A DNA stretch of 64,000 bases, from positions 1,656-65,655 of the IMG/VR virus record IMGVR_UViG_3300030617_000007; one strand, written 5' to 3'. This DNA is from a virus. The notes under the pieces were generated by a model, which searched no databases, was not told where the DNA came from, and was given only the letters and a program-made list of their open reading frames with translations. This document shows positions 48,970 through 64,000 of this stretch, piece by piece. The position numbers and the translations under genes were made by a program. Position 1 is the first letter of the stretch, and each line of letters begins with the position of its first letter.

Positions 48970-49046
48970 TGGTCTGGGTGGTTCGATTTGAACGAACGGC
49001 CTTCCGATTCCAGATCGGAAGCTCTACCAGACTGAGCTACACCCAT
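48970..49046 (-). tRNA. tRNA-Pro(UGG)
   Basis: Cloverleaf, anticodon loop TCTGGAA, T-loop TTCAAAT, G72/A73, encoded CCA; A1-G72 mismatch. Confidence 0.9.
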
Positions 49047-50957: not shown

Positions 50958-51032
50958 TGGCTGGCTCGCTAGGTCTCGAACCTAGAACCGTTCGGTTAAC
51001 AGCCGAATGCTCTGCCGTTGAGCTACAAGCCA
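50958..51032 (-). tRNA. tRNA-Asn(GUU)
   Basis: Cloverleaf, anticodon loop CTGTTAA, U1-A72, G73, encoded CCA. Confidence 0.93.
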
Positions 51033-52789: not shown

Positions 52790-53221
52790 TTAGCGATGCT
52801 CTTTACTCAGGTCGTCGCACTCTTGGTTCATCTCTCGGTATACATGGTCGAAATGTACCGTAACCCCTTTAGCACGAATATTTATTAGCAACTCATTGGC
52901 TAGAACGTAACCCTCGTAGTAGAGCTTATCTGAGGACGCACGCCACTTCCGGTTCATCACTTGGATGACGAGTTTGCTGTCCCCACGCACCTGAAGGAAG
53001 TCACCGCGATTGGCGACAGTCTCATACGCGATCAATCCTTTCGCCAGAGCGACGAACTCGGCCAGGTTATTAGACATACCCGGTCCGGTTCCTATAACCC
53101 CATTACCTGTAGTGGGAGAGGCCGGATTAGAGATATCGCGCAAGACGAATCCGTACGCCGCCGTACCGCCTGGGTTCTTGGGACCGCAGCTCCCGTCGAA
53201 GTTGAGTGTGTAGTTTGCCAT
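52790..53221 (-). CDS. Ribonuclease HI-like protein
   Basis: FDGSC.PKNPG, NNLAEFVAL, GDSKLVI, HVYREMNQECDDL. Confidence 0.9.
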   Translation of the reverse strand: MANYTLNFDGSCGPKNPGGTAAYGFVLRDISNPASPTTGNGVIGTGPGMSNNLAEFVALAKGLIAYETVANRGDFLQVRGDSKLVIQVMNRKWRASSDKLYYEGYVLANELLINIRAKGVTVHFDHVYREMNQECDDLSKEHR

Positions 53222-57319: not shown

Positions 57320-57690
57320 GAAGACATCTCGGACAAAACACTCGTCCGGTAACACACGTAGAAGGTTGCTTGTTATTGTCGGCGGACGCGAGGGCAGAAC
57401 TCGCCACCTCCACCATAAATTGATCTTGATTCGATTATGGGGGTGACTCAGTTTCGACGGCGGCTGATAGTGGGTACAACTTGCGTGTCGGGAATTTGTT
57501 AGCTTCGCCCGTAAAAAGAAACTCGCAAAAAGAAATGTCACGAACAATGACGAAATGGCTTCGATCCGCAACATGGTGATGTTCCCCTCGGCTTCGGCTG
57601 GGCACGACATCGACACCAAGGTGCGAGTAGCCGATCTGGTTGCAGCCTAAGCTGCTAAGGTAGTCCCTGCCTCACAGGGACACACATTGA
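57320..57690 (+). ncRNA. ssrA: Circularly permuted (two-piece) tmRNA: acceptor piece ~57320-57415, 23-nt intervening segment, coding piece from 57439 (3' end uncertain, possibly up to 57894)
   Basis: GGACGCGAG-GGCAGAA-CTCGC-CACCTCC-A-CCA precedes GGGGGTGACTCAGTTTCGAC; 7-bp acceptor stem with G3-U70; tag frame ends VAA*. Confidence 0.88.
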
Positions 57691-61597: not shown

Positions 61598-62692
61598 ATG
61601 GCAACTCAAACCGGAGTGAACATAGAAATGGCGTATCCACAGAAGGCCGAACTGAAAGCCGCATCTGAAGCTAACGACGAGCAAATCGGCTTTGAGATTT
61701 TGAAGCTGATGAAGATGGTCTTTGGCGACGGGCGCGGCTTTGCGCATCAGCTACCTTTGCAGACCATAGATCCAAACCACCGTGTTCAGTTTGGATGGCA
61801 TGATCCTGTAGACGGCTCTCGGCAGATTTGGCACGGAAGCTCTTGGACCGATGCCTGGGAAAGCTACCTCAAGACTTCGGTACCCGAGACAGGTCCGTGG
61901 GTGAACTGTGACGGTAGACCTTTCACCGATGCGTTTCACTTCCAAGCCACTCCATTACCCTCCGCCATGGCGACGCTGGGCGCGGCGTTGCAGTCGGAGC
62001 CTGATCCAGATATCTACGAGGTAAAGAACTCGAAGAACTTCAAGTCCTTCGAGTCCAAAGGCTTCGACGCGGCGGTAGGTTACAACATCAAATTCAATAG
62101 CAGTCCCAGCCCGTATAGTAACACCAAGATCATAAATGGTAGTGGTATGGTTCTCCCTGTGCAGAGCGTCTACGTCAACCTACCGGCTCCGCTTGATCCA
62201 CCGGCACCGAAGTACGTCGAGAAGACAGACTACGTTGAAGACCCTTCGACCGGCGCATACAAATACTACACCTACAAGGTACCGGCTCCGCAGGTTACCC
62301 AGAAATCTTATCCTGATCCGATCCAGCCTCCGTCTTGGGGCACAAACCTAAACCTAAAGACGGCAGTTCCGATGAAGTCTCCGGCCAATCTCAAAGACAA
62401 GCCCTTCATCTTCGAGATCGTGTCCGAAGGCCGACAGCAGAACTACATCCAAGCGCGCATCGACGTGCTCAACGGACTAGCGCTTCTGGCACCGAAGGAC
62501 AAGATGCAATACTTGAGCCAGAAGCAGGACAGTATGCGGAACGACATCGAGTCCAGACTGCACACCCACGGTGTCGGCAAGGTGGAGATCATGGAACTCT
62601 TGAATACGCTTGACGTTCGGGCGATTCAGCAGTACCATAAGCAAGCTGGAGTCATTCCCAGCACTGACACTGGAGGTGACAATATGACCTAA
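61598..62692 (+). CDS. Hypothetical Pro-rich protein
   Basis: 364-aa ORF. Confidence 0.55.
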   Translation: MATQTGVNIEMAYPQKAELKAASEANDEQIGFEILKLMKMVFGDGRGFAHQLPLQTIDPNHRVQFGWHDPVDGSRQIWHGSSWTDAWESYLKTSVPETGPWVNCDGRPFTDAFHFQATPLPSAMATLGAALQSEPDPDIYEVKNSKNFKSFESKGFDAAVGYNIKFNSSPSPYSNTKIINGSGMVLPVQSVYVNLPAPLDPPAPKYVEKTDYVEDPSTGAYKYYTYKVPAPQVTQKSYPDPIQPPSWGTNLNLKTAVPMKSPANLKDKPFIFEIVSEGRQQNYIQARIDVLNGLALLAPKDKMQYLSQKQDSMRNDIESRLHTHGVGKVEIMELLNTLDVRAIQQYHKQAGVIPSTDTGGDNMT

Positions 62693-62708
62693 CACGATGG
62701 CGACGGCC

Positions 62709-62737
62709 TTACGATAGATGAAACCTATAGATAAAAT
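62709..62737 (+). promoter_or_regulatory. Candidate promoter for the large ncRNA
   Basis: TTACGA-N17-TAAAAT. Confidence 0.4.
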
Positions 62738-62754
62738 AAAAAGTATATAAGAAC

Positions 62755-63425
62755 ATTCGGATAGGCATAGAGTATCCTACTCCGGCGCAGCACCCCTTGT
62801 ACGTAGGAAAAGTTATCTGACATGTCGCTCTCGGCAGAGTGAGACCCGGCTGACCCCGGCAGTCATCCACCGAGTTCACGTCAGACGGACAGCCTTTGAT
62901 CGTAAAGGACCATACCCACGAGAACCGGCCAGAAGCGAGACGGCATAGTGCCTATCTCGTGTTGTAACCGGCATAGCCCCTAGACCCAAGGAACCCGAGC
63001 GCGTGTGCGTCGAAGGTCCGAACCCAACACCTGAAATCCCCCGAACTCGGTCACCCTGTCACATTCCAATATGCCACCGTGATAAAGTATGGTTCACGGA
63101 ACTAAAGGGACACAGGCTAAAAGGCGAGAGCGAAATTGGAACAGGTTAGGGTAAGGAAACCACGAGGAAGCGTTCTCGACTGACTTGGCTAGGGGCTTCT
63201 CCATTCTCCACCCATACCCATACCCATAAGAGACCGGACACCTTTCTGGAGCAGCGAGAGCCGATCCCTGATCGGGTCGAGCGCACAGCCCATGCTATTC
63301 TCCTCGCTGCATAGACGAGGTGAAAAAGCGTGAGCGAGTTGGCGAGTGTGAGGGCTTCCGAAGGAAGGCCGATCCGAGCAGAACGAGAGAACGGTTTATC
63401 GCCGAGTGCTTCCTGTAGTAGTCTC
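62755..63425 (+). ncRNA. Candidate large structured ncRNA (~670 nt)
   Basis: No credible ORF; nested long-range stems, e.g. 62975-62983/63189-63197, 63064-63070/63135-63141, 63251-63258/63303-63310; G-U pairs favour the + strand. Confidence 0.55.
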
Positions 63426-63446
63426 TGGGAACCTCCGGCCCATACA

Positions 63447-64000
63447 GCCCTCAAGAGCCCTCAAGAGCACCTTACCCCAGATAACCTGCCCTCAAGAGCA
63501 CCATGGGCCTCATGGCTTCAGCATACCCCCTTCCAAGACACCCCCACCACCCTATCTGGAATCACCTACCCCTCATCTCCCCTACCAAGTACCATCCTAT
63601 CCCTCAAGAAACTAGGAAAACTTCTCCCATAAGTACCCCTTCGGTACTGACCCCCTATAAGGCCACTATATATGGTACCTATGGTGTACATATCCCTATA
63701 TATGCCTATCATATACGGTCCCTTTACGGTCCCTTTAGGGTCCCTTGCTATCATATATGGGACCCTATCCCTATTAGTTCCGTATACGTACGTGTCCCTC
63801 CTGTACCACCACGCTGGCCGCGACAGCTCAGGCTGAGCGAGTGGGTGTGGGGGAATCCCCCGACCCGGCCTTGTCGCGATACTTCTTAGAGACTCCCTAT
63901 TGCTGATTCTAAAGGACTTGCTCCTCCTGCTGCTCTATTCCCTAATCGTTTTTCGTACCCCTGACTCACGTACCCCTATACGCGTCAAAGACTTGTAACG
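63447..64000. repeat. C-rich short direct-repeat region (possible pac/terminal/origin region)
   Basis: CCCTCAAGAG at 63448, 63458, 63489 (and 9/10 at 63601); GGTCCCTT at 63717, 63728, 63739. Confidence 0.55.

Follow-up and report, generated by a model that had tools for sequence, protein, structure and literature searches.

Large, intricately folded RNAs of bacteria and phages are rare, and each one that has been solved (OLE, ROOL and GOLLD) showed an unexpected RNA-only architecture (PMC12286853). The RNA-only higher-order assembly of ROOL and GOLLD came as an unexpected discovery, and both are often, albeit not obligatorily, located beside tRNA islands in phages or prophages; ROOL env-120, for example, comprises 659 nt (PMC12286853). 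The phage virome of Acidobacteriota-rich peat soils has barely been explored (PMC11924767).

In this study, we describe a locus of a ~96 kb phage from peat soil, where the + strand of positions 62791-63430 would, with a probability of about 0.6, encode a discrete structured non-coding RNA of ~640 nt from an uncatalogued family. Unless another sequence is named, all positions refer to the window, i.e., the whole stretch of 64,000 nt that was analysed (bases 21794-85793 of an IMG/VR virus record of 85,920 nt). Public data hold only two distinct sequences of the candidate RNA, namely that of the window phage and that of a single diverged relative (L004), a JGI contig of 17.4 kb which was found by protein searches with the adjacent orphan gene. 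A preliminary description had proposed an undescribed large structured RNA at this place, and this is still the best-supported reading, although it builds on two sequences only, four of the proposed helices fail and the boundaries shift. If true, an unrelated class of 640 nt would add a new habitat and a new host lineage to the small set of large RNAs, and the candidate, which combines a rod of fixed length with invariant domains and exchangeable tips, would represent a compact object for structural work.

Genomic setting and distribution

Located behind the final gene of a + strand block, the candidate RNA opens an intergenic region of 2.57 kb, in which it is followed by two repeat tracts, the first C-rich and the second AT-rich, and by a good TTTACA-N16-TATAAT promoter ahead of the next + strand genes. 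The gene block upstream encodes an RNase H (52790-53221, minus strand), a family-A DNA polymerase with a 3'-5' exonuclease domain, a permuted (two-piece) tmRNA (57354-57650), a phosphoesterase, an RlaP-type nucleotidyltransferase and an orphan protein of 364 aa. The tmRNA gene belongs to the + strand block, is situated 5 kb upstream of the candidate and has counterparts in L004 (2799-3095) and in phage Tunturi_3 (L002 9213-9437); the nearest tRNA genes (48973-49046 and 50961-51032) are ~12 kb away. Tunturi_3 and Tunturi_4, both Tunturiibacter phages, are the nearest cultured relatives, the former being the closest, with DNA polymerases sharing 49 and 40% protein identity, respectively, with that of the window phage. 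Both are phages of Acidobacteriota (PMC11924767).

Only 127 nt of the IMG/VR record remain beyond the window. The record end is not the end of the genome, since the JGI peat contig Ga0302220_10000069 (96,004 nt) is identical to the record and then extends 10 kb further. Breaks 82 or 127 nt beyond the window end also occur in several Logan assemblies. The 10-kb extension (window 64000 onward; L013 12501-21065) carries phage-like genes, including those of a DUF7178 protein and a 515-aa AAA-like protein, and some of the same genes (the DUF7178 protein and the 515-aa protein) are found downstream in L004. At the other end of the virus record, outside the window, bases 1-47 (G000) consist of tandem GGTCT(C/G/T)GG-like units, and similar GGTCTC-containing repeats are present in the intergenic region of Tunturi_3. 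The latter phage additionally features 756 nt without annotated genes (L002 10711-11467), flanked by lipoprotein and phosphoesterase genes and without an Rfam match at the gathering score. In Tunturi_4 (PP885687.1), a type-P5 twister ribozyme (RF02684; L003 24894-24951) scored 62.2 bits (gathering score 37.6); it sits between two annotated genes and carries no annotation in the record.

The 364-aa protein encoded directly upstream was considered as a possible partner of the RNA, and gave no Pfam or PHROG match and no informative Atlas neighbour; the mean pLDDT of its AlphaFold model is 38. Within the C-terminal coding part of this gene, the window and L004 share a perfect run of 50 nt (62504-62553), which exceeds every exact run in the DNA polymerase gene and may reflect either a very constrained peptide (YLSQKQDSMRNDIES) or an overlapping signal at the nucleotide level.

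The phage is abundant in public data, with at least 24 DNA runs of peat metagenomes containing the full stretch, which makes the candidate RNA ecologically present. Over the stretch, 100% identity was found in contigs from four of these runs and in eight assembled contigs from other samples; regarding population variation, no letter differed in the four metagenome runs. Among the runs listed as containing the stretch, there was no RNA run. Homologue searches had a similarly narrow yield: a blastn search of the stretch against 50,697 phage records, five conserved-block patterns against viral contigs and two such patterns against species genomes gave no match, and the four matches of one 18-mer in JGI metagenome contigs were all due to chance. 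Scans anchored on the proteins of three neighbouring genes revealed no relatives, protein searches with the two nearest upstream genes led to L004 only, and the contigs carrying relatives of a 227-aa protein end short of the locus. All members of the upstream-protein cluster represent the same phage, with 0 differences over 1308 nt of the intergenic region. Within the phage itself, neither a second copy nor a long antisense target of the candidate RNA was found.

In Tunturi_3, no counterpart of the candidate RNA was detectable, and the repeat tract starts directly after the preceding gene. Since this phage has the downstream repeat region without a detectable RNA, the candidate is dispensable in relatives. 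It is most likely an accessory gene of a narrow lineage, comprising one ~96-kb peat-soil phage and one related phage.

Conservation pattern and predicted fold

From the stop codon of the upstream gene (62690-62692) to the record end, stops of mixed type occur in all six frames, which bears out the earlier claim of an ORF-free stretch, and no frame is opened by reassigning any single stop codon. The variable blocks differ in length from those of L004 by 23, 10, 2 and 3 nt, i.e., mostly not by multiples of three, and two separate 1-nt indels fall into the nearly invariant 3' part. The minus-strand ORFs of the window and L004 have only 15 residues in common in frame, even though the DNA beneath is nearly identical. 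The minus-strand ORF of the window (102 aa) was rejected as a gene, having no relatives among 5.8 billion proteins and no Pfam match, and a Pfam search of the three ORFs of at least 100 aa in the stretch gave 0 matches. With no frame conserved between the homologues and mixed stops everywhere, a protein-coding gene, including one with recoded stops, is ruled out. Very likely, we are dealing with a real, conserved and non-coding element.

Its conserved unit spans 62791-63430 on the + strand and corresponds to positions 8229-8845 of L004 (nhmmer E 1e-98). The interval originally proposed, 62755-63425, thus largely coincides with this unit, except that its first 36 nt are not conserved. From the end of the orphan gene through the intergenic region, the DNA of the two phages is 69% identical, and the orphan proteins are only 39% identical. 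The comparison of 62791-63430 with L004 yields a mosaic, in which six exact-match runs of 32-46 nt alternate with unalignable blocks, the latter being exchanged for other hairpins or for different arms that are again complementary to each other and add up to the same length. In the 7.7 kb upstream, six runs of at least 30 nt are shared with L004, one of which is the tmRNA gene; its 54 nt form the longest exact match in the region compared. In its long exact-match runs, the candidate shows the same type of conservation as the tmRNA, the only proven structural RNA of this region.

Folded alone, L004 gives the architecture of the window sequence. In both cases, a helix joins the ends; two hairpins come next, of which the first (TCTGAC/GTC(A/G)GA) has an exchangeable tip and the second is itself replaceable, and these are followed by a long rod with AGCCCCU.. 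/ ..AGGGGCU as its closing pair of strands, a small hairpin and a compact 3' domain. In the closing helix, the 5' strand (62793-62809) forms 13 predicted pairs with 63410-63429, all of which are invariant; the two substitutions in the 3' strand both affect unpaired positions, and the MFE fold of L004 independently recovers the same helix. The following hairpin domain (62812-62890) has a stem at 62812-62824 / 62877-62890, including TCTGAC/GTCAGA, with a single change from U-A to U.G, and a variable tip (62830-62874) whose 45 nt are replaced by an unrelated 22-nt hairpin in L004. Short invariant helices (62892-62929) lead to a variable hairpin at 62929-62966 (GCGAGAC..GGCA/UGCC..), for which L004 carries GUGG-loop-CCAC.

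The rod domain (62970-63202) is based on the helix AGCCCCUAG/CUAGGGGCU (62975-62983 / 63189-63197), which shows one change from A-U to G-C relative to L004. Its variable arms (62982-63046 and 63134-63190) enclose an invariant distal core (63047-63133) with the apical hairpin CCGUGA/UCACGG at 63077-63099. A C-rich linker, predicted to be unpaired (63203-63233), and a small hairpin with the invariant stem CCGGA/UCUGG (63234-63249), the variable loop of which has 6 nt here and 19 nt in L004, separate the rod from the nearly invariant 3' domain (63254-63409), which harbours helices H17-H22 and exact-match runs of 24, 46 and 37 nt. The differences of the 3' domain from L004, including the two 1-nt indels, are mostly located at positions unpaired in the consensus fold, which is weak support because the consensus-fold method itself favours that outcome. 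A search for pseudoknots found no complementarity of 5 nt or more between the invariant unpaired segments of the candidate.

All helices listed in the preliminary description are present where it had placed them, and most are recovered by the single-sequence MFE fold; about half of the set is kept in L004, and four of roughly ten fail. Retained are TCTGAC/GTCAGA (U-A to U.G), AGCCCCTAG/CTAGGGGCT with one double change from A-U to G-C, CCGTGA/TCACGG, the loop of which varies on an unchanged stem, and the CGAGA-GGCA hairpin, which was counted as kept since a different hairpin occupies the same site in L004. TTGGCGA/TCGCCGA persists in its inner 5 bp, and GCAGCGAG/CTCGCTGC loses one pair. Conversely, CCTTTG/TAAAGG is broken at two pairs by a change of TT to AA, and CCGAG/CTCGG, TTCCAAT/ATTGGAA and the two CGGCA-loop hairpins, which are located in the variable tip, are not kept. 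The motif GGCATAG does recur three times, as described (62764, 62942 and 62970), yet only one of these copies is conserved in L004, and the whole 86-kb genome contains 10 copies on both strands.

Statistically, the single-sequence fold of the window is only modestly better than shuffled sequences, and one sequence alone is weak evidence: MFE z-scores against dinucleotide shuffles are -2.0 (+ strand) and -1.2 (- strand) for the window and -1.7 (+) and -0.2 (-) for L004. A clearer signal comes from the pair of sequences, the + strand consensus fold of which reaches -144.6 kcal/mol compared to -122.0 +/- 6.4 kcal/mol in column-shuffled alignments (z -3.5, 0/50); the z-score on the - strand is -0.7. 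Four control regions, one of them the non-coding DNA downstream and three of them coding (the terminal 3' part of the upstream gene and two stretches located farther upstream), ranged from z +0.6 to -0.9 on both strands. Moreover, the rod arms (65+57 nt in the window, 63+60 nt in L004) have no alignable sequence and in both phages fold to a rod of the same length, and they pair with each other better than with shuffled partners (z -3.15, 1/300, in the window; z -3.14, 0/300, in L004); a cross-genome control of the arms is less clear-cut, as the two phages share a bias towards C in the 5' arm and towards G in the 3' arm. The variable hairpin V2 (62929-62966) likewise folds better than its shuffles in each genome (z -2.7 and -2.9).

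As for covariation, which had been suggested as a check, RNAalifold reported 13 double changes, a number within the shuffled range (mean 6.9, maximum 14) and not significant alone, as two sequences give such changes by chance. A column-wise compensation test on the single-sequence MFE structures was not significant; the MAFFT alignment of the variable blocks is unreliable. Support for the fold consequently rests on the shared architecture, the complementarity of replaced segments and the consensus energy, and not on pair-by-pair covariation statistics.

Putative transcription signals and alternative explanations

Several observations favour the + strand, including the single-sequence z-scores in both genomes, the consensus z-scores (-3.5 vs. 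-0.7) and the orientation of all neighbouring genes; in addition, one-sided changes in otherwise invariant helices yield G.U pairs on this strand. The consensus-fold statistic alone is unsafe for strand assignment, since this test placed the signal of the known tmRNA on its opposite, wrong strand. Directly after the upstream stop codon, a conserved block (62693-62737, +) contains TTACGA (62709-62714), a 17-nt spacer and TAAAAT (62732-62737). Its first 26 nt are almost identical in L004, where an A/T hexamer (TATAAA/ATAAAT) follows 16-17 nt past the same TTACGA. The promoter proposed in the preliminary description is therefore present as a sequence pair, but was not called in the sigma-70 scan because its -35 hexamer matches the consensus at 3/6 positions; judged from the sequence, TTACGA-N17-TAAAAT may act as a weak sigma-70-like promoter. 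The TTACGATAGA block occurs once in the genome and was rejected as a genome-wide promoter motif for this reason. On the minus strand, no sigma-70-like promoter was called within 62400-64000, although an antisense transcript of this DNA may still exist. The promoter/terminator scan found no intrinsic terminator after 63430.

The region downstream of the folded unit (63431-64000, +) is C-rich, G-poor and repetitive, with a GC skew down to -0.44. It comprises three copies of GCCCTCAAGAGC (63447-63502), three ATATATGGTACC-like copies (63668-63764) and, around 63817-63896, a conserved block that is palindromic and GC-rich; the short motifs GTACTGACCCCCTAT and GGGAATCCCCC...CCCGGCC of the C-rich tract are common to Tunturi_3. 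This repeat region gave no consensus-fold signal (z -0.5 and -0.2), and a second conserved fold in the GC-rich block 63817-63896 was unsupported across three phages. Further on, the AT-rich tract (part of L013 12500-13632) shows short tandem repeats, followed by the TTTACA-N16-TATAAT promoter before the next gene. Altogether, the remaining intergenic DNA (63431-64000 and L013 12500-13632) looks like an origin or early-promoter zone.

Based on these features, the candidate could be transcribed rightward, either from the weak sigma-70-like element or by read-through from the upstream + block, and the C-rich, G-poor tract after 63430 could serve as a zone of Rho-type termination. In the fold supported by the two-sequence comparison, a long-range helix would join the 5' and 3' ends, two 5' hairpins would bear freely replaceable tips, and a rod of ~230 nt, the arms of which change in sequence and keep their complementarity and total length, would carry the invariant distal core, followed by the C-rich linker and the almost invariant 3' domain. 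The distal core (63047-63133) and the 3' domain (63254-63409) may then represent the working surfaces, to which a protein, additional copies of the RNA or an RNA machine of the host would bind, and the variable helices may be spacers of conserved length. Such an RNA would presumably act as a folded scaffold or decoy in the manner of ROOL and GOLLD and not as an antisense regulator.

An alternative to an RNA gene would be a strand-specific DNA-level element of the replication origin or of the packaging region, for example a single-strand initiation or primosome-assembly signal folded in single-stranded DNA, or else several protein-binding sites separated by variable spacers. The same 2.6-kb intergenic region contains iteron-like direct repeats, a skewed C-rich tract and AT-rich repeats, and parts of it are common to Tunturi_3; a mosaic of conserved blocks and variable spacers would also suit protein-binding sites, and folded single-stranded DNA would give identical hairpin conservation. 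However, the direct repeats and the motifs shared with Tunturi_3 are all located outside 62791-63430, the sole local repeat within the unit, GGCATAG, is not conserved, and the consensus-fold signal appears in the candidate and not in the repeat region. RNA better accounts for the wobble-type changes and for the difference in fold statistics between the strands, and a closed multi-domain fold of 640 nt with a fixed-length rod far outsizes the single-strand initiation signals known; we consider an action on the DNA level unlikely. A role in replication could also be fulfilled by the transcript itself, as a structured pre-primer or origin-activating RNA similar to ColE1 RNA II which runs on into the repeats downstream, is processed by RNase H and extended by the family-A polymerase. 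The genes for both enzymes are present, the RNA is oriented towards the repeat- and AT-rich region, and its length is near that of RNA II. Against this stands the predicted closing helix, which makes the candidate a self-contained unit ending before the repeats, as well as Tunturi_3, which possesses the repeat region without the RNA, and no antisense partner or target was found in the phage. A C-rich non-template strand disfavours a stable RNA-DNA hybrid, and as the downstream non-template strand is C-rich and not G-rich, this applies to the rightward transcript here. Overall, a primer function seems quite unlikely, although it and the DNA-level element are both rivals to be taken seriously.

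Even less is to be expected of a functionless gene remnant or a recently exchanged mosaic segment, in which conservation would result from recombination and not from selection. Phage genomes are mosaic, only two lineages have the element, and unusual conservation is likewise seen at the end of the upstream gene (3' part), where the exact 50-nt run (62504-62553) is located. Yet recombination would hardly produce six separate perfect blocks with unalignable sequence in between over 640 nt, the variable segments retain complementarity and length, and no remaining frame or protein similarity points to a former gene, which renders a remnant very unlikely. Returning to the structured RNA, which we prefer, a more far-reaching and improbable version would make it the first representative of a new class of large, ornate RNAs in phages of acidic peat and tundra soils, with the rod and the 3' domain possibly building an RNA-only assembly or a catalytic or ribosome-directed machine.

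Comparison with known RNA systems

A cmscan search of the whole window at the Rfam gathering score gave no match in the candidate stretch and detected the tmRNA elsewhere (57354-57650); at E<=10, no Rfam family was found in 62500-64000, L004 8100-10300 or L013 11000-13700. The families covered include ROOL, GOLLD, OLE, HEARO, introns, RNase P and ribozymes. The Rfam search recommended earlier thus returned no known family for either homologue at either threshold, and the statement that motifs of RNase P, group I or group II are missing agrees with this result. With group I and group II introns and RNase P RNA, the candidate has a comparable size and multi-domain folding in common. Both intron types were rejected, as there was no Rfam intron match at E<=10, no interrupted gene and no intron-encoded protein; the stretch is placed after the stop codon of a complete gene and before non-coding repeats. 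RNase P RNA, 6S, SRP, tmRNA and other universal RNAs were dismissed in the absence of a covariance-model match in the stretch.

ColE1 RNA II, which has a length of ~555 nt, resembles the candidate as a structured RNA of a few hundred nt which lies upstream of, and points at, a putative origin region, in a genome encoding RNase H and a Pol I-type polymerase. In contrast to RNA II, the candidate, which has no sequence relation to it, is predicted to close its fold before the repeats, no partner of the antisense RNA I type was found, and the composition of the downstream strand is unfavourable for a hybrid. The phage's own tmRNA is likewise a structural RNA of the same + strand block with long exact-match runs between the two phages; it is unrelated in sequence and, unlike the candidate, present in Tunturi_3.

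ROOL (RF03087) and GOLLD (RF01998) share several general traits with the candidate, all being phage-encoded, several hundred nt long, rich in helices and without an evident protein partner. In comparison with these two, the candidate matches neither covariance model, even at E<=10, and is located away from tRNA islands, with the nearest tRNAs at ~12 kb; membership in either family was rejected on the covariance-model and tRNA-island tests. It further differs in lineage and habitat, belonging to a peat relative of Acidobacteriota phages. With GOLLD, the candidate also shares a better conserved 3' region, a looser 5' region and a predicted unstructured linker (PMC12286853).
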